Virus record (IMG/VR): IMGVR_UViG_3300005531_000120
Coordinates: 1 to 59,409 of that record
DNA from: a virus
Taxonomy: Duplodnaviria; Caudoviricetes
DNA length: 59,409 bases
Reading direction: 5' to 3' (one strand)
Shown: one piece after another, positions 23,036 to 52,880 of the stretch
Layout: the number at the start of each line of letters is the position of its first letter
Position numbering within the stretch: position 1 is the first letter of the stretch
Notes under the pieces: generated by a model
What the model was told of the DNA's origin: nothing
The model's database searches: none
Seen by the model: the letters and a program-made list of their open reading frames with translations, nothing else
Made by a program: the position numbers and the translations under genes

Positions 23036-24097
23036 ATGCGCCATCGCGCCTTTCCCGGGCCGCGCCTAGAGACGCGCGCTCTCTACGAGCGGGCGGGCAA
23101 ATTCCTGCTGGCCACCATCTTCCGCGACGATGACGCGCGCGCGTGGTGCAAGGCCAATGGCATCGCGATCACGCGCGCCGCGGACGAGACGATGGACTCG
23201 ACCGGCGGCTTCCTGGTCCCCCACGAGCTCGCCGCGGCGATCCTGGACCTCCGCGACATGTTCGGCGCCTTCCGGCGCCGGGCTCGGATCATGCCGATGA
23301 AGCACGACTCCATGGGCGTTCCGCGGCATGCCGGCGGCACGAGCGCGTTTTTTACCGCGCAGAACGCGGCTGTCAGCGGCACCAACGCCAATCCCGACAG
23401 CATGTCGCTCACGGCCAAGAAGATCGGCGCGCTCGTGCAGATCTCGAGCGAGCTCGAGGAGGACGCGATCGACAGCATGGTCGATTACGTCGCCAACGAA
23501 ATCGCCTTCGCGTTCGCGGCCCAGGAGGACGACTGCGCCTTCAACGGCGATGGCACCTCGAAATACGGCGGGATGCTCGGCGTCTCGGCGATCGTTCTCG
23601 ACGGTAACCACAACAAGGCGAAGGTCACCGCGGCCTCCGGCCACAACACCTTCGCCGGCCTCGACACCACGGATCTCGGCAACGTGATGGCCGCGGTCCA
23701 GGCTTCCGCGATCCCGAACGCCGCCTGGTTCTGCTCTCAGACCGCCTTCGCGCTCACGTTCTGCCGTCTCGCCGGATCGGGCGGCGGCGGCTATCTCGAC
23801 ACGCGCCTGGTCGATGGGATTCCGACCCCCTGTTATCTCGGTTTTCCGGTCGTCCTGACCCAGAAGCTGCCGCTGGTCACGAGCTCGCTCTCGGGAAAGG
23901 TGATGCTCGCGTTCGGCGACATGTACGGGGCGGGCGTGCTCGGCGAGCGGCGCGGCATCACGATCGCGCGCTCTTCCCACCGGTATTTCGATCAGGACCA
24001 GATCGGGGTGCTCGGCACGGAGCGCTTCGACGCCGTGCTGCATCAGATGGGGGACAACGCGAATTTCGGGCAACTCGCCGCGCTGGTGGGGAACTGA
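23036..24097 (+). CDS. HK97-fold major capsid paralog 1 (short N-terminus)
   Basis: GGFLVPHEL, LTAKKIGALVQISSELEED, FNGDGT, YLGFPVV, FGD, ERFD; GAGGAG SD; intact ORF. Confidence 0.9.
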   Translation: MRHRAFPGPRLETRALYERAGKFLLATIFRDDDARAWCKANGIAITRAADETMDSTGGFLVPHELAAAILDLRDMFGAFRRRARIMPMKHDSMGVPRHAGGTSAFFTAQNAAVSGTNANPDSMSLTAKKIGALVQISSELEEDAIDSMVDYVANEIAFAFAAQEDDCAFNGDGTSKYGGMLGVSAIVLDGNHNKAKVTAASGHNTFAGLDTTDLGNVMAAVQASAIPNAAWFCSQTAFALTFCRLAGSGGGGYLDTRLVDGIPTPCYLGFPVVLTQKLPLVTSSLSGKVMLAFGDMYGAGVLGERRGITIARSSHRYFDQDQIGVLGTERFDAVLHQMGDNANFGQLAALVGN

Positions 24098-24098
24098 C

Positions 24099-25502
24099 AT
24101 GCTCAAGCGATTGACCATCGACGAGTTCCGCGCGGCCGCTCGCGAGAAGCGCGCGCTCGAGGGCACGGTCTCGCGCCTGGCGCTCTCCGACGGACAGGCG
24201 GTGGACGGGCAGGCCCGCACCATCCGCTTCGTCTTCAGCGACGGCACGGTCGACCGCGCCGGCGACCGCATCGATCCCGAGGGCTGGGACACCGAGGATT
24301 TCCTCAAGAACCCGGTCGCCCTCTGGGCGCACGACAGCTACTCGCCCCCGATCGGCCGCGCCTCGAACATCGGGCCCGTGGCCGGCAAGCTCATGGGCGA
24401 TATCGAGTTCATGCCCGCTGACATCAGCGCGTTCGCGGACAGCGTCTTCCGCATGGTGCAGGGCGGCTACGTGAAGGCGGTCTCCGTCGGCTTCCGGCCG
24501 ATCGAATGGACCTTCACCAACGACAAAGACCGGCCCTACGGCATCGACTTCACGAAGCAGGAGCTGCTCGAGATCTCGGTCTGCCCCGTGCCCTGCAACC
24601 CCAATGCGCTCCTCGAGGCGCGCGCCAAGGGTATCAACACCGCGCCGCTTCTCGAGTGGGCCGAGCGCCTGCTCGACACCGGCGAGAGCGTGCTGGTGCC
24701 GCGCGCCCTGCTCGAGGAGACCTTCAAGGCCGCAAAGACGCCGAAGACCACCCGGCAGAAATATCTGGCTCCTCGCGCGAAGACCGCCGACTGGAAGGTC
24801 GGCGCGGCGCGCGATCTGCCGCTCGACCAGTCCGACTCCTGGGACGGCGCCGCGGCCGCGGCCTCGATCTTCGAGCACGCCGGCGGCGACGATTTCAATC
24901 CGGAGGTCGCGAGGAAGGGCTTCCTGGTCTACGACGCGAGCGCGCCCAAGCTGCGCGGCTCCTACAAGGAGCCTTTCGCACACGTCGTCGACGGCACGCT
25001 GAAGGCCGTCAAGGGCGGGATCCGCGCGGCGGCCTCGCGCCTGCCGCAGGCCGACATCTCCGACGGCGCCCGCGCCGAGGCGAAGGGCGTCATCGAGCAT
25101 TACGAGAAGGCCTTCGGCATCGGCGAGGGCGACAAATCGGTCTCCGGGGAGGACGTCCCGACCGGTACGTGCGGCCGCTCGAAGGACGAAGAGTGCCTCA
25201 TGAAGGATCCGCAGAACTGCGCGGTCCATTACGTCCCGCCGGCGCCTCCAAAGTCGAAGGCGGGACGCCGCATCTCCGCCGCGACGAAAGCGCTTCTCGA
25301 AGCCGCAGCCTCTCATCATGCCGAGGGCATGGCCTGCCATGCCAAGGCGCTCGATTGCATCAAGACGGTGCTCGAGAGCAACGATCCCGCCGGCGACGGC
25401 GACGACGACGCCAACCAGCCGACCGATGACGAGGATACGAAGCGCCATCGCCGGCAAGAGGCGGCCCGGAAGCTCCGCGAGGAGCTCGGTATCGAGAACT
25501 AG
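24099..25502 (+). CDS. HK97-family prohead protease with long C-terminal extension
   Basis: DRAGDRI, NPVALWAHD...PIGR, AVSVGF, ELLEISVCPVPCNPNAL; about 290 further residues. Confidence 0.93.
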   Translation: MLKRLTIDEFRAAAREKRALEGTVSRLALSDGQAVDGQARTIRFVFSDGTVDRAGDRIDPEGWDTEDFLKNPVALWAHDSYSPPIGRASNIGPVAGKLMGDIEFMPADISAFADSVFRMVQGGYVKAVSVGFRPIEWTFTNDKDRPYGIDFTKQELLEISVCPVPCNPNALLEARAKGINTAPLLEWAERLLDTGESVLVPRALLEETFKAAKTPKTTRQKYLAPRAKTADWKVGAARDLPLDQSDSWDGAAAAASIFEHAGGDDFNPEVARKGFLVYDASAPKLRGSYKEPFAHVVDGTLKAVKGGIRAAASRLPQADISDGARAEAKGVIEHYEKAFGIGEGDKSVSGEDVPTGTCGRSKDEECLMKDPQNCAVHYVPPAPPKSKAGRRISAATKALLEAAASHHAEGMACHAKALDCIKTVLESNDPAGDGDDDANQPTDDEDTKRHRRQEAARKLREELGIEN

Positions 25503-25665
25503 AGCCGTCCGACCGGCTCTTCGCCCAGACGGCCCTTGGGCAAGGCAATCCCGCGGCGCCGAGAGTGCGCCGCATCCCACCAACGCCACGCAGATACCTT
25601 CCCGCGAGCAGGAGCCGACGGTTCGGCCCGCGTGAGGGAGTGGCATTTGACGGAGCCCACCAGCA

Positions 25666-26979
25666 ATGGCGAAGAAGCATGAGCTCCGCCAGGCCCTCAC
25701 TAAGGCCGTGGCGGAGTTGGAAACCATGGCCGGCAAGTCCGAGGCCGAAGGTTTCAAGCAGGACGTCTACGACGCCCTGAACGAGAAGATCCTCGACCTC
25801 AAGAAGCAGCTCGAGCGCGTCGAGCAGGCGGAAAAGGTCGCGGCCGCGCTCGCGAGCCCGGTGCCGGACGCGGACCGCTTGACGCCGCTGGCGCCGCCCT
25901 CCGCGCACAAGCTCTACGGCACGCTCAAGCATTTCCGCGATCGCGAGGTGAACGGCCGCACGATCCGCGCGGTCGATCAGGCCTATGCCGCCGGAATGTG
26001 GTTCAAGGCCACGATCTTCGATCACGCCGGCGCGAAAGACTGGTGCAAGTCGCACGGCATCTCCATCGCGAAGGCGCAGGGCGAGGGCATCGACAGCGCC
26101 GGCGGCTTCCTGGTCCCCGAGGAGCTGCTCGCCAACATCATCGTGCTCCGCGAGCAGTTCGGCGTCTTCCGGCGCGAATGCCAGGTGGTGCCGATGGGCA
26201 GCGACACGCTCAACTGGCCCCGCCGCACCGGCGGCCTGACCGCGTTCTTCACCGGCGAGAACAGCGCGGTGACGGAATCCCAGGCCTCGTGGGACAACGT
26301 CAACCTGACCGCCAAGAAGCTCGCGGTCCTCACGCGCATGTCGAACGAGATCGCCGAGGACGCGGTGATCTCGGTCGCCGACTGGCTCGTGGGCGAGATC
26401 GCCTATGCCTTCGCGCTCAAGGAGGACGACACCGGCTGGAACGGCGACGGGACCTCGAGCTACGGCGGCATCCGCGGCGTGCTGACCGTCTTCGCCGACG
26501 GCAATCACACCGCGGGCCAGTACCAGGTCTCGAGCGCGACGCTCACGTCGCTGGTCCTCAAGGACCTGACCGGCACCATGGGCGTGCTGCCGCAATACGC
26601 GATCGGGTCGGCCAAGTGGTACATGTCGCAGCAGATGTTCTACTCGGTGGTCGCGACGATCACGGCAGGGGCGGGCGGCAACCGCCTCGACGTGTTGACC
26701 GACCCGGTCAACCCGCGGCTCCTCGGCTTCCCGGTGGTCTTCTCGCAGAAGCTGCCGGTCGCCACGCCCGGCTCCGGCAAGGCGATGTTCCTGTTCGGCG
26801 ACCTCGCCAAGGCCGCCGCGATGGGCGAGCGCCGCGGCGTCACGATCAAGCGGTCCGATCATCGCTACTTCGAGAACGATCAGATCGGCCTGCTCGGCAC
26901 CGAGCGCTTCGACATCAACGCGCACGACCTCGGCGACACGTCGAACGCCGGCCCGCTCGTCGCCGCGAAGTCGCCGTAA
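25666..26979 (+). CDS. HK97-fold major capsid protein paralog 2 (with N-terminal coiled coil)
   Basis: Coiled-coil delta-like domain, GGFLVPEEL, LTAKKLAVLTRMSNEIAED, LLGFPVV, FGD, ERFD. Confidence 0.95.
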   Translation: MAKKHELRQALTKAVAELETMAGKSEAEGFKQDVYDALNEKILDLKKQLERVEQAEKVAAALASPVPDADRLTPLAPPSAHKLYGTLKHFRDREVNGRTIRAVDQAYAAGMWFKATIFDHAGAKDWCKSHGISIAKAQGEGIDSAGGFLVPEELLANIIVLREQFGVFRRECQVVPMGSDTLNWPRRTGGLTAFFTGENSAVTESQASWDNVNLTAKKLAVLTRMSNEIAEDAVISVADWLVGEIAYAFALKEDDTGWNGDGTSSYGGIRGVLTVFADGNHTAGQYQVSSATLTSLVLKDLTGTMGVLPQYAIGSAKWYMSQQMFYSVVATITAGAGGNRLDVLTDPVNPRLLGFPVVFSQKLPVATPGSGKAMFLFGDLAKAAAMGERRGVTIKRSDHRYFENDQIGLLGTERFDINAHDLGDTSNAGPLVAAKSP

Positions 26980-26984
26980 TGGTC

Positions 26985-27087
26985 CCGGCGCGACGAGCCG
27001 CCACGCCACACCAACCCTCGTCGCGCCGGTAACGCCAGGTCTCCCGCGCTACGCGCGCCGCCGGGTTGGCCGGCGGCGGAGGCGCGC
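26985..27087. repeat. Back-to-back pair of TAC-hairpin repeats after the capsid gene
   Basis: Minus unit stem CCGGCGCGACGAG/CTCGTCGCGCCGG + GTAAC; plus unit GCTAC-GCGCGCCGCC-GGGTTGGC. Confidence 0.85.
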
Positions 27088-27130
27088 GGGAAAAGACCCC
27101 CAACCGCTCTTCCTGAAAAGGACCTCTCCC

Positions 27131-27574
27131 ATGCTCCCGCAACTCAAGCAGATGCCCCTCCTGAACGGCTCGTCGGTGGCGACCAACGCCACCGTGACCG
27201 CGAACTTCGACACCCTCGGCTACGATTGGGCCACCGTCGACGTCTTCGGCGCCACGGCGGCCACCAACAACCAGCCGACCGTGCTCAAGCTCAGCGAGGG
27301 GGATACCACCTCCTCCTTCACGGACATCACCGGCTTCGTCGGCGGCACGGCCGTTGACGCGACCCACGGCTTCGTCATCCCGGCGCAGGTGACGACCGGC
27401 TTCTACAACACGAAGTTCAACATCGACCTTCGTGCCCGTAAGCGTTACCTGCAGATCAGCATCGGGTCGCCCGGCGCCGCGACGGCTTTCTCGGCCGTGG
27501 CGAACCTCGGCCGCGGCGAGCAAGCCCCGGTCACGGCTTCCAAGGCGAACGTCCAGGCGCTGGTGGAGGGCTAA
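27131..27574 (+). CDS. Probable head decoration/cement protein
   Basis: Beta-rich 147 aa after capsid; FDTLGYD...KRYLQI pattern. Confidence 0.7.
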   Translation: MLPQLKQMPLLNGSSVATNATVTANFDTLGYDWATVDVFGATAATNNQPTVLKLSEGDTTSSFTDITGFVGGTAVDATHGFVIPAQVTTGFYNTKFNIDLRARKRYLQISIGSPGAATAFSAVANLGRGEQAPVTASKANVQALVEG

Positions 27575-27580
27575 CCGCAT

Positions 27581-27676
27581 TCCCGGCCCGACAGCCGGGA
27601 GCGAGGTCAGCGCTGATAGGCGGGCGGAGTGTCGGCTCCGCCCGCTGCTTCTCCCCGACAGGAGAGTTCCGACATG
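27581..27676 (+). ncRNA. Structured 5' leader with complementary hairpin loops (candidate translational switch)
   Basis: Hairpin 1 loop CCGACA (27588..27593), hairpin 2 loop TGTCGG (27630..27635), further CCGACA at 27655..27660 and 27669..27674. Confidence 0.65.
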
Positions 27677-28876
27677 GACAACGACACACGCGAGCATCGT
27701 GAGCTCGCGGAAGCCTGCGCCCGACCGATCAAGCTCGACCTCGGCGCCGGCCCGGTCTCGCCCGCAGGCTTCACGCCGATGGGCGCGGATCATGGCTCCG
27801 CGATCTTTCCGCTCGACTATCCCGACGACTCCGTCGACGAGATCCGCGCGAGCCACGTGCTCGAGCATTTCCCGCACCGCCAGGTGATCGACGTCCTGCG
27901 CGAGTGGGTACGCGTGCTGAGGCCCGGCGGGCGCATGCGCATCGCGGTGCCGGACCTGCTGGTGATCTCGCAGAAATACATCGCCGGCGAGCCGATCAAC
28001 GTCCAGGGCTACCTGATGGGCGGCCAGATCGACGCGAACGATTTCCACAAATGCGCCTTCGACGAGGAGGCGCTCGGCGAGGTGATGGCCGCGGCGGGCC
28101 TGCTGCTGATCCGCCGCTGGACCTCCGAGCTCGAGGACGCGGCCGCGCTGCCGATCTCGCTCAACCTCGAGGGCCGGAAGTCGATCGGGCCCAAGCCGAA
28201 GATCCACGCGGTCATGTCCGCGCCGCGGCTTGGCTTCATGGATAATTTCGTGTCGGTGATCGAGGGCCTGGTCCCTCTCGGCATCCCCTTCAACCGGGTC
28301 ACCGGATCCAACTGGGGCCAATGCCTCACGCGCGGCATGGAGTCCGCGCTCGAGGATCCAAACCTCGACCTTGTGCTGACCCTCGACTACGACACCGTCT
28401 TCAAGTCGGTCGACCTGGTCAATCTGATCCAGACCATCATGGTCTACCCCGAGGTCGACGCCTTGGCGCCGGTGCAGTCGAGCCGCGGCAACTCACGGCC
28501 GCTCCTCGGCATGACGCTCGAGGGCGAGGCCACCACCCGCGTCCCTTATTCGACTTTCGCCGGCGACGTAACCGAGATCGCCACGGCGCACTTCGGCCTG
28601 ACGCTGCTGCGCGCGCGCAAGCTGCGCGAGCTGCCGCGCCCATGGCTACACCACGTTCCGGATCCGGACGGCGGCTGGAACGACGGGCGCGTCGACGACG
28701 ACATCGCCTTCTGGCACAAGTGGAAGCAGGCCGGGAACCGGCTCTTCCTGGCGAACCGCATACCGGTCGGCCATGCCGAGCTCGTGGTGCTGTGGCCCGG
28801 CAAGGACCTCTCGGCGATCTACCAGCCGATGCGCGACTATCACCGGGTCGGCAAGCCGCCCGAGGCCTGGTCGTGA
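27674..28876 (+). CDS. SAM-dependent methyltransferase fused to GT-A-like glycosyltransferase domain
   Basis: KLDLGAG, SVDEIRASHVLEHF, RVLRPGG...AVPD; then LTLDYDTVF (DxD), HFGLTLLR, DDDIAFW...GH. Confidence 0.85.
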   Translation: MDNDTREHRELAEACARPIKLDLGAGPVSPAGFTPMGADHGSAIFPLDYPDDSVDEIRASHVLEHFPHRQVIDVLREWVRVLRPGGRMRIAVPDLLVISQKYIAGEPINVQGYLMGGQIDANDFHKCAFDEEALGEVMAAAGLLLIRRWTSELEDAAALPISLNLEGRKSIGPKPKIHAVMSAPRLGFMDNFVSVIEGLVPLGIPFNRVTGSNWGQCLTRGMESALEDPNLDLVLTLDYDTVFKSVDLVNLIQTIMVYPEVDALAPVQSSRGNSRPLLGMTLEGEATTRVPYSTFAGDVTEIATAHFGLTLLRARKLRELPRPWLHHVPDPDGGWNDGRVDDDIAFWHKWKQAGNRLFLANRIPVGHAELVVLWPGKDLSAIYQPMRDYHRVGKPPEAWS

Positions 28877-29478
28877 GCTTCCGCTGGCTCAACGGGCGCG
28901 CGGCGAACGTCTATTCGCAGTTCGGCGAGGATGGCGTCGTTGCCGCGGTCCTCGAGGTGATCCGTCCGGCGAACCGCTGGTGCTTCGAGTGCGGCGCGGC
29001 CGACGGCCTGTTCTTCAGCAACACCCGGCGCCTGGTGCGCGAGGGCTGGGACGCGGTGCTGGTCGAGCAGGACGCGGCGGCGTTCCAACGGCTCTGCGAC
29101 AATACGCGGGACGATCGCGAGCACGTGCACCTCGTGTGCGAGAGGCTCGACACGATCGATCCGGTGCTCCGGCACGCCGGTGCGCCCGAGGACATCGACC
29201 TGGTCGCGATCGACGTCGACGGCCAGGACTATCACCTCTTCAACTCGATGCTGCGCTACCGGCCGCGCATCGTGATCGTCGAGTACGATCCGAACGCGCC
29301 GGCCGATTTCATCCCCGACGTCGGCGGCGAAGGGCAAGCCGGCCTCGAGGCGATGCGTCGTCTCGCCGCCGGCCGCTTTTACACCGAGGTCTACCGCAGC
29401 TGGTGCAACCTGGTGCTGGTCCGGCAGCCGCTCGACCGGCTCCTCAAGCTGAGCCCAGAGGGCAAGCTGCACGTCTGA
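28873..29478 (+). CDS. FkbM-like methyltransferase
   Basis: YSQFGEDG, FECGAADG..FSNTR, DLVAIDVDGQDY, PRIVIVEY; GTGA overlap. Confidence 0.88.
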   Translation: MSFRWLNGRAANVYSQFGEDGVVAAVLEVIRPANRWCFECGAADGLFFSNTRRLVREGWDAVLVEQDAAAFQRLCDNTRDDREHVHLVCERLDTIDPVLRHAGAPEDIDLVAIDVDGQDYHLFNSMLRYRPRIVIVEYDPNAPADFIPDVGGEGQAGLEAMRRLAAGRFYTEVYRSWCNLVLVRQPLDRLLKLSPEGKLHV

Positions 29479-29496
29479 CGCGAAAGGCTCCTGGCC

Positions 29497-30414
29497 ATGC
29501 TCGAGGCGTCCATCTCGACGGTGGTCGCGCCGGCCTCTAGCCACGACTTGACCACGCTCGCGGCCGTCAAGGCCGAGCTCGCCATTCCCTCCACCGACAC
29601 ATCGAACGATAGCTTCCTCTCGCCCGCCATCACCCAGTCCTCGGCGGTAATCGCCAGCTATTGCGGCCGGATCTTCCAGGTCGAGGCGCTGCAGGACCTC
29701 TTCTACGTTCGCCGCGGTGCCTTTCCCTGGCGCCCCGCGCCGCAGCCGGATCCGCTGCAGCTCGCGCGCTGGCCAGTGACGGTCGTGACTTCCGCGGTGC
29801 AGACGCTGAGCGACGGAACCACGACCACCCTGGTCCAGGGCACGGACTTCACGCTCGATGCCGCCCGCGGCTGGCTCTACCGGCTCGATTCCCAGGGCCG
29901 CATCAGCTGGAGCTGGGAGCCGCAGGTCCTCACGGTCCAGTACTCCGCCGGTTACACGAAGCAGATCGCCGGCGAGGCAGCGACGGTCCCGTCGAACCCC
30001 GGGCCCTACACGGCCACGGTCGCGAACGCCTCGAGCTTCGCCGTCGATCTCGGCGTGACCTATGCCTCGAGCGGCGCGGCTCTCACGAAGGTCTCGAGCG
30101 CCCCCGCCGCCGGCCAGTACAGCGTCAACACCGTAACGGGTGTCTACACCTTCGCCGCGGCTGATGCCGGCGCGGCCGTGAAGATCGGCTATAGCTACGC
30201 CGCGATCCCCGACGACGTCGCCAGCGCCGCGCTGCGCCTGGTCACCTCCCGCTACCGGTCGAAAGGCCGCGATCCCGCATTGAGGAGCGAGATGCTGCCG
30301 CAGGAGGGCTCGCGCCAATGGTGGGTCGGCCCGATGCCGGGCCAGGGCGGCTCGCCGTTCCCGCCGGATATCGAGGCGATTCTCGACCCCTATCGGGTCC
30401 CGGGGGTTGCATGA
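29497..30414 (+). CDS. Head-tail connector (gp6-like) with inserted beta domain
   Basis: LTTLAAVKAEL...IASYCGR...VQYSAGY [insert] IPDDVASAALRLV...ILDPYR. Confidence 0.85.
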   Translation: MLEASISTVVAPASSHDLTTLAAVKAELAIPSTDTSNDSFLSPAITQSSAVIASYCGRIFQVEALQDLFYVRRGAFPWRPAPQPDPLQLARWPVTVVTSAVQTLSDGTTTTLVQGTDFTLDAARGWLYRLDSQGRISWSWEPQVLTVQYSAGYTKQIAGEAATVPSNPGPYTATVANASSFAVDLGVTYASSGAALTKVSSAPAAGQYSVNTVTGVYTFAAADAGAAVKIGYSYAAIPDDVASAALRLVTSRYRSKGRDPALRSEMLPQEGSRQWWVGPMPGQGGSPFPPDIEAILDPYRVPGVA

Positions 30415-52786: not shown

Positions 52787-52880
52787 GAGCGTAGCGAGGG
52801 ATTTTTGCCGCCAGAGCAAACGTCAATAGATCAATGGTTTATGCTGCCGTCCGAGAAGCGACGTTCTCAGCCAGGGTTCC

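Follow-up and report, generated by a model that had tools for sequence, protein, structure and literature searches.

A phage needs hundreds of coat and tail subunits and only few enzymes and chaperones, all from one late transcript; to our knowledge, the way in which the ratio of these late proteins is set is understood in only few model phages. Several kinds of RNA structure are known at gene boundaries. REP/BIME hairpins are intercistronic, standing after abundant genes and before low-abundance genes, and in systems of the repY-repZ type the termination of translation on an upstream ORF opens a structure.

In the passages of PMC8053102 that deal with such plasmids, a pseudoknot is described as essential for RepZ translation, with reference to Asano & Mizobuchi 1998 and Praszkier & Pittard 2002. 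Another group of systems, set out in the corresponding part of PMC12548453, couples neighbouring genes through RNA unfolding, as at the MS2 coat-lysis, f1 VII-IX, and E. coli rpmI-rplT pairs, one of them with a spacing of +52 nt. For phages, the section of PMC2864571 on cyanophages presents manA (RF01745) and wcaG (RF01761) as candidates for cis-regulatory RNAs, located before sugar and exopolysaccharide genes, and PMC10690425 (2023) catalogues 8495 candidate structured RNAs taken from intergenic regions in IMG/VR.

The locus described here belongs to an IMG/VR phage record of 59,409 bp (68.6% G+C, completeness about 90%), which was analysed over its whole length and is referred to below as the window. 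Positions 27575-27673 are best read as a conserved cis-regulatory RNA element of late mRNA that consists of four hairpins (H1, P, H2, and H3). Judged by sequence comparison, we rate it as a new RNA family of a known kind, namely translational control through sequestering of the ribosome-binding site (RBS) or through pairing of loops. Its three-way matched loops, combined with a loop code specific to each genome, are unusual.

Gene context and anatomy of the element

The head module of the window includes a capsid-family ORF (23036-24097), a prohead protease (24099-25502), the major capsid protein (25666-26979), and a head-tail adaptor (29497-30414). Phage_capsid (HK97-like) ORFs of 353 aa and 437 aa lie on both sides of the protease (23036-26979), an unusual doubling. 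After the major capsid gene comes p147 (147 aa; plus strand, 27131-27574, with the stop codon TAA at 27572-27574), followed, across a gap of 99 nt (27575-27673), by a gene whose 400-aa product fuses a SAM-methyltransferase to a glycosyltransferase-2-like domain (plus strand, 27674-28876, with ATG at 27674-27676), 3′ of which lies the frame of an FkbM-type methyltransferase. The p147 protein belongs to phrog_5707, a family without known function, and a phmmer search against PDB sequences returned nothing meaningful. Its AlphaFold model is a beta jellyroll (pLDDT 87.3), for which Foldseek gave a weak match to the jellyroll chain of a Bordetella phage capsid (3j4u_H, TM about 0.5). On the strength of this model and this weak likeness, p147 is probably an abundant capsid protein of the cement or decoration type.

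The fusion protein carries a Pfam Methyltransf_11 domain at its N terminus, and PF13632/PF13641 glycosyltransferase domains are found in its homologues. Its N terminus is about 17 aa longer than that of most homologues (383-385 aa, starting at KLDLGAG), and the first codon of this extension (27674-27727) is the start codon that the RNA element provides. The FkbM methyltransferase ORF, 385 aa in length and in a different frame, overlaps the fusion gene at its end (28321-28876); its true start is probably near 28873, because the frame from 28873 is open and the domain is still present.

Read from 5′ to 3′, the element runs from the upstream stop codon through 6 nt, H1, P, H2, and H3 with the Shine-Dalgarno (SD) sequence to a linear CCGACA and the AUG. 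H1 (plus strand, 27581-27600), which begins 6 nt past the p147 stop codon, pairs TCCCGGC (27581-27587) with GCCGGGA (27594-27600) in a 7-bp stem around the loop CCGACA (27588-27593), here called the decoy loop. P (plus strand, 27606-27617) is a hairpin or palindrome with the core TCAGCGCTGA (27607-27616). In H2 (plus strand, 27620-27645), the arms GCGGGCGGAG (27620-27629) and CTCCGCCCGC (27636-27645) enclose the loop TGTCGG (27630-27635), which as UGUCGG constitutes the anti-loop; the G+C-rich stem has 10 bp, or 12 bp when two G.U pairs are included (27619-27646). H3 (plus strand, 27650-27665; hairpin energy -6.3 kcal/mol) is a 5-bp UCUCC/GGAGA stem with the loop CCGACA (27655-27660), and its 3′ arm is the SD sequence itself (GGAG, 27661-27664, with A27660 opening AGGAG). 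A fourth, unpaired copy of CCGACA occupies 27669-27674 on the plus strand, A27674 being the A of ATG. In the minimum-free-energy fold, a U.G pair closes H2 to a GUCG tetraloop, so that a 6-bp kiss would need this pair to be opened.

A first-pass annotation of the window had listed H1, H2, the palindrome, and the CCGACA copies, and each of them is present where it was placed. The copy next to the SD sequence had been described as overlapping it, with occlusion by a loop partner. Its position and the involvement of the SD sequence hold; what had been missed is that this copy forms the loop of H3, the SD sequence being sequestered by its own hairpin and not merely overlapped.

The anatomy of H1, H2, and H3 is far beyond chance. 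The RNA fold of 27570-27700 has an energy of -62.1 kcal/mol, against -48.65 ± 4.14 for shuffled sequences (z = -3.25), and 1 of 200 shuffles was as good. The hexamer CCGACA is not enriched window-wide, 43 matches being counted over the two strands where 38.3 ± 6.8 would be expected, and inverted repeats of at least 5 bp surround only 3 of these 43 copies (7, 10, and 5 bp), all others reaching at most 3 bp. Among the 171 hairpins of the window with at least 5 Watson-Crick pairs and a 6-nt loop, H1/H2 and H2/H3 are the only neighbours within 120 nt whose loops are complementary; 200 second-order Markov simulations produced a mean of 0.015 such pairs and a maximum of 1. Two weak 5-bp hairpins at 52858 and 52901 that share the loop GCGACG look like chance when the sequence is read.

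Consensus scans detected no promoter-like site in the element region on either strand and no terminator at the element. An interpretation of CCGACA as a -35-like box was discarded, as no -10 box occurs at the proper spacing and the loop variants misfit. Stop-codon readthrough or bypassing was also discarded, given that the downstream genes have their own SD sequence and start codon and differ between loci.

Conservation, covariation, and placement over the ribosome-binding site

A comparison of the DNA from 25600 to 29600 with GenBank phages gave no similarity match, and a tblastn search of the same phages with the fusion protein gave one weak partial match, to an uncultured phage, and no cultured relative. 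The fusion-protein family comprised 1797 proteins at E ≤ 0.001 among 8000 candidates scored, the nearest relatives being P0002 (75% identity) and P0003 (69%), both on short contigs. A single-protein scan of viral contigs with the methyltransferase returned nothing, and alignment-based scans returned 530 relatives in viral contigs, 39 loci in genome contigs, and 552 in metagenome contigs, all with protein identities to the window of at most 56%. The best 80 of the 530 viral relatives and the best 80 of the 552 metagenome relatives were taken further. The order of p147 and then the fusion gene is kept in most related loci, and reading of the raw gaps before any RNA model, in loci chosen by protein homology only, revealed the same four-hairpin layout with differing stems in about twenty of them.

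A covariance model, R1, was built from 21 loci and used with a match threshold of E ≤ 1e-5 on the plus strand. Matches were obtained in 39 of the best 80 viral loci, 2 of 36 genome-contig loci (the search covered all but L121-L123), and 20 of the best 80 metagenome loci. These 61 matches yielded 46 distinct sequences, the 5′-truncated L146 being omitted, all from uncultured phages with flanking proteins about 40-56% identical; the alignment holds 45 of the 46, L019 having been dropped as it has no anti-loop. Most instances were found by a model built from the first ones, and R1 did not model the loop pairs as pairs. Two MAG genomes (G006 and G007) contain one element site each, on a phage contig. 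Among 151 genomes of one family, three matched at E ≤ 1e-4, namely G006, a tail-type variant in G148, and G134, whose match is a long inverted repeat and hence a false positive. A bacterial genome match (L216) is a long inverted repeat and not the element. The phages that carry the element belong to a large group of uncultured soil phages, whose hosts are probably Alphaproteobacteria.

The stems of H1, P, H2, and H3 all covary across the 45 sequences. The nested helices are paired in 88.3% of cells, with double changes in 28 of 31 pairs; none of 500 shuffles reached any of the five covariation measures, and pairing fell to 32-47% when partners were slid as controls. Counts of G.U against A.C in the stems are 37 to 5 for H2, 12 to 9 for H1, and 7 to 4 for H3, and the excess in H2 argues that the element is an RNA on the gene strand rather than a DNA site. 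In the window, R1 scores 88.7 bits on the plus strand against 38.2 bits on the minus strand, and the element is co-oriented with the genes at every locus examined.

P covaries as a hairpin and is at the same time a perfect, spacer-less palindrome in about nine sequence versions, including TCAGCGCTGA, ATCGGCCGAT, ACCAGCTGGT, CCGAGCTCGG, and GGTTGCAACC, with palindromic versions in L009, L020, L046, L011, L025, L210, and L215, among others. The palindrome is broken in a few variants, by a GUGA loop in L023 and by AGUGCU in the L035 group. A plain hairpin has no need of a self-complementary loop, which leaves the palindrome unexplained; RNA dimerisation or a DNA-level site is possible. Besides the loops and the palindrome, few unpaired positions are conserved.

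Complementarity between the loops is conserved together with the stems. The H1-H2 and H2-H3 loop pairs are each 96.7% paired in the 45 sequences, with both-side changes at 3 of 6 pairs each, a covariation that rests on 4 of the 45 sequences and on 3 tail-variant sequences described below. Most sequences have the loop set CCGACA/UGUCGG/CCGACA (H1/H2/H3), and the variant sets are CCCACA/UGUGGG/CCCACA (L039), CGCACA/UGUGCG/CGCACA (L046), CCGGCA/UGCCGG/CCGGCA (L011), and CCGGACA/UGCCGG/CCGGCA (L152), the last having an H1 loop of 7 nt that matches along no more than 4 bases. In a maximum-likelihood tree built from the fusion proteins, four independent changes of the anti-loop can be placed; all four are matched in the H3 loop, and in the H1 loop three are matched fully and one partly. 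L039 and L034, of which L034 is unchanged, are sisters with good support, and the two UGCCGG cases stand apart on the tree. Pairing is also kept through G.U, at the RNA level only, in L045 (H1 loop CCGGCA with UGUCGG) and in L215 (H1 loop CCGCUA with UGGCGG). The loops thus appear to have kept their complementarity by compensatory changes, as would be expected of a kissing interaction, and the leader alignment that the first-pass annotation proposed as a check has borne it out. Since a 6-nt anti-loop can hold one partner only, selection on the loops of both H1 and H3 fits the prediction of partner exchange.

The element is also placed consistently with respect to translation signals. H1 follows the upstream stop codon at a median distance of 6 nt, with 3-7 nt in 34 of 45 instances; positions 3-7 nt past a stop codon are within the reach of a terminating ribosome. 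This short distance may reflect a compact intergenic region only. H3 contains the SD sequence in its 3′ arm (GGAG, GAGG, or AAGG) in 41 of 45 instances, counted where a start codon follows 6-18 nt after the loop and opens an ORF of at least 50 codons, which indicates a conserved SD-sequestering hairpin before the start codon. The copy of CCGACA at the start codon, to which attention had been drawn at first reading, recurs as a start-near loop copy of at least 5 nt in 13 of these 41 instances, where the background is 0.069 for each 27-nt stretch, and shows no visible covariation in the variant-loop lineages. Taken at the level of sequence comparison, the alignment shows a conserved structure with covarying stems, three-way covarying loops, and a link to the RBS.

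Variant arrangements and the proposed mechanism

The upstream neighbour of the element is p147 or a short Ala-rich ORF. Directly downstream stands the fusion gene in most loci, a GDP-mannose 4,6-dehydratase gene in L006, L008, L023, and L061, and small ORFs or a Trans_reg_C protein in some others. The four dehydratases, some of them fused to a cupin, share a cassette with the methyltransferase-glycosyltransferase; the presence of a dehydratase in the cassette points to a putative capsid glycosylation with a deoxy-sugar. The first-pass annotation had presented the element as a leader of the methyltransferase-glycosyltransferase and of modification genes. This specificity is contradicted by the other genes found behind the element, by a variant that precedes tail chaperones, and by three homologous gene pairs that have no gap at all (L002, L004, and L018, with L028 and L085 on the same contig as L004).

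Partial modules also occur. H1-P-H2 without H3 is found in L014, L021, L024, and the first module of L045; H1 and H3 without H2 in L007, L019, the first module of L061, and the second of L045; and H3 alone in L048 and in the second modules of L052, L021, and L024. L007 has no anti-loop in its 11-kb record, a fragment estimated to be 19% complete. In multi-module loci, a single anti-loop hairpin is accompanied by two or three hairpins with CCGACA. The modules that have no anti-loop in cis, or no H3, indicate that a simple local three-hairpin switch is not the whole story.

The records of L019 and L048 contain methyltransferase leaders with CCGCCA loops and no anti-loop, and, between phrog_290 (a tail structural gene) and phrog_313 (a tail assembly chaperone), a full variant of the element with UGGCGG and CCGCCA loops. 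The distance from this tail variant to the methyltransferase leader is 19 kb and 5.5 kb, respectively, on the same strand. Tail variants are located at 1500-1630 in L210 and at 1500-1640 on the minus strand in L206, both leading from the tail structural gene to the tail assembly chaperone, and at 1500-1630 on the minus strand in L215, where the flanking genes are unannotated; the third of them is on a genome contig from the same family as the Bradyrhizobium MAG that carries L099. They have an extra hairpin with the palindrome GGTTGCAACC or ATCGCGAT, and their CCGCCA/UGGCGG loops are a fifth loop pair. A loop sequence that is specific to a genome and common to distant sites within it hints at an action over a long range or in trans. 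Matches below the threshold of the Rfam ALIL pseudoknot occur about 1.4 kb upstream of the element in L017 (953-1060, 24.6 bits) and L039 (930-1065, 19.3 bits; gathering score 50).

We lean, with modest confidence, towards a translational switch in which the anti-loop of H2 would alternate between the H1 decoy and the loop of the SD hairpin H3. The UGUCGG loop would form a 6-bp kissing helix with one partner at a time, which may be the identical CCGACA loop of H1 just past the stop codon that ends the abundant capsid-associated gene, the CCGACA loop of the hairpin H3 that sequesters the SD sequence of the next gene, or, in the window phage, the linear CCGACA copy over the start codon. The partner of H2 would set the accessibility of the RBS and thereby how strongly a low-abundance gene, in the window the methyltransferase-glycosyltransferase, is translated behind a high-abundance structural gene. 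As the trigger, the ribosome is the most likely candidate: when terminating on the upstream ORF, it would cover or melt H1, and the anti-loop freed in this way would move to H3 or to the start site. We infer that the loops kiss in vivo, that translation is the output, and that the ribosome is the trigger, with either repression or activation as the sign of the effect. The two-state translational switch suggested by the first-pass annotation is upheld in its anatomy, an anti-loop with two or three alternative partners of which one is on the RBS; its functional half is carried forward as a proposal.

A broader form of this switch, which we put forward only tentatively and consider rather unlikely, is an RNA "address code", in which each phage would have one anti-loop hairpin and hairpins with the matching loop on several late-gene RBSs. 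The sites lie up to 19 kb apart in one record, and each genome has a loop sequence of its own. The anti-loop, perhaps set free as a small RNA, would act over a long range or in trans; the decoy beneath the terminating ribosome of the most-translated structural gene would restrain it, so that ribosome traffic on capsid and tail genes would determine how much of the enzymes and chaperones is made. Two RNAs could, moreover, dimerise through P.

At the same junction, the element could instead serve, like intercistronic REP hairpins, to protect mRNA ends or in processing or attenuation, a reading to which we assign a low though not negligible probability. H2, compacted through H1:H2 pairing, would block 3′-to-5′ exonucleases or mark a site of processing or termination, the structural mRNA on the upstream side would outlive or outnumber the downstream part, and H3 would be an ordinary structured RBS. 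The position of the element, always after a structural gene expected to be abundant (p147 or a tail gene), is in line with such a role, as are the H1-P-H2 modules without H3 in 4 of 45 instances, with a T run downstream in L014. At the same junction in some more distant relatives without the element, a strong hairpin is followed by 5-6 T in 9 nt (L050, L059, and L071), and a hairpin with a T run was seen by eye in L062, L065, L091, and L097, which agrees with the junction being a point where expression may step down after an abundant structural gene. In the element itself, none of the 44 H2 instances has at least 5 T in the next 8 nt, and H2 is therefore not a canonical intrinsic terminator. 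Moreover, protection leaves unexplained both the covariation of the H3 loop with the anti-loop and the H3-type hairpins that display the genome's own loop on other RBSs.

The matched loops could alternatively be read by a protein. H1 and H3 would then be operator hairpins whose CCGACA is recognised by a phage RNA-binding protein, as boxB is by lambda N and the operator hairpin by the MS2 coat protein, and H2 would be a built-in masking competitor; we consider this distinctly improbable. It would account for a loop that every site of one genome shares and that varies from genome to genome, and for the persistence of CCGACA-type hairpins at sites without an anti-loop in cis. No candidate protein was identified, however, the loops tolerate G.U-type changes (L045 and L215), and the compensatory changes still demand pairing with the anti-loop. 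As this pairing is needed in any case, an operator would add to the RNA-RNA model without replacing it.

A riboswitch for SAM/SAH or a nucleotide sugar, in which the H1:H2 kiss organises a ligand pocket, appears very unlikely. Loop-loop contacts do organise some riboswitch aptamers, and the downstream gene often encodes the methyltransferase-glycosyltransferase or a GDP-mannose 4,6-dehydratase. A SAM or NDP-sugar ligand had been entertained, as speculative, at first reading. That suggestion finds no backing in Rfam 15 (including SAM/SAH riboswitches, ROSE, manA, and wcaG), which gave no match in 27575-27673 at E ≤ 10 and none at the element in L008, L017, L210, L039, and L046 at E ≤ 1, nor in the sequence itself, where little is conserved outside the stems, loops, and palindrome. 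The heterogeneity of the downstream genes, with tail chaperones, small ORFs, and a Trans_reg_C protein behind the element or its variant, likewise makes a SAM or sugar riboswitch unlikely. A DNA-level feature made of hexamer sites and a palindromic operator, a cruciform, or a recombination site is scarcely credible: the hexamer does occur in both orientations and P stays palindromic through its versions, as operators of dimeric proteins do, but the hexamers are always exactly in loops, their +/-/+ orientation is fixed, the element is always co-oriented with genes, and the stems covary with G.U on the plus strand only.

The element looks like a compact, evolvable RNA device at the boundaries of structural and enzyme genes, and its three mutually matched loops offer unusually clean natural compensatory evidence. 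If the partner exchange is true, the element would be a kissing-loop switch that senses ribosomes and uses orthogonal "codes", of interest both to RNA biology and to the design of synthetic translational control. It also marks a cassette for capsid glycosylation and methylation in uncultured soil phages.

Comparison with described systems

No description of the element was found in the literature, and the catalogue of PMC10690425 may include it unnamed. The phage RNAs manA and wcaG, as characterised in the cyanophage section of PMC2864571, differ from it in architecture and in the phage groups concerned, and their models do not match it.

REP/BIME sequences and terminators resemble the element in that G+C-rich hairpins stand within an operon, immediately past the stop codon that ends an abundant gene. 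REP/BIME sequences are dispersed in the host, whereas the element has one site each in G006 and G007; REPs are also the opposite of the element, whose stems vary while its loops stay conserved. Intrinsic terminators have a U tract, which H2 lacks.

A closer likeness is seen with the RNA-unfolding systems outlined in PMC12548453, where a structured downstream RBS likewise becomes accessible depending on ribosomes that finish the upstream gene. According to that outline, the ribosome directly melts the RBS helix in those systems, whereas the element would act indirectly, through the proposed exchange of kissing partners. Its RBS lies about 70-90 nt past the upstream stop codon, unlike helices that are melted directly.

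The plasmid systems repY-repZ (IncI1 ColIb-P9) and repB-repA (IncB pMU720) differ from the element in several respects. The element is related to them neither in sequence nor through Rfam, has three hairpins and a decoy loop identical to the target loop, and gave no sign of an antisense RNA gene. The upstream ORF is short in IncI1 and IncB plasmids, whereas those of the element are full-length structural genes within phage structural operons. What the element shares with these plasmids is an upstream ORF that ends at the structure, at a median of 6 nt in the case of the element, and, as proposed here, the pairing of a hairpin loop with a distant sequence beside a downstream RBS.
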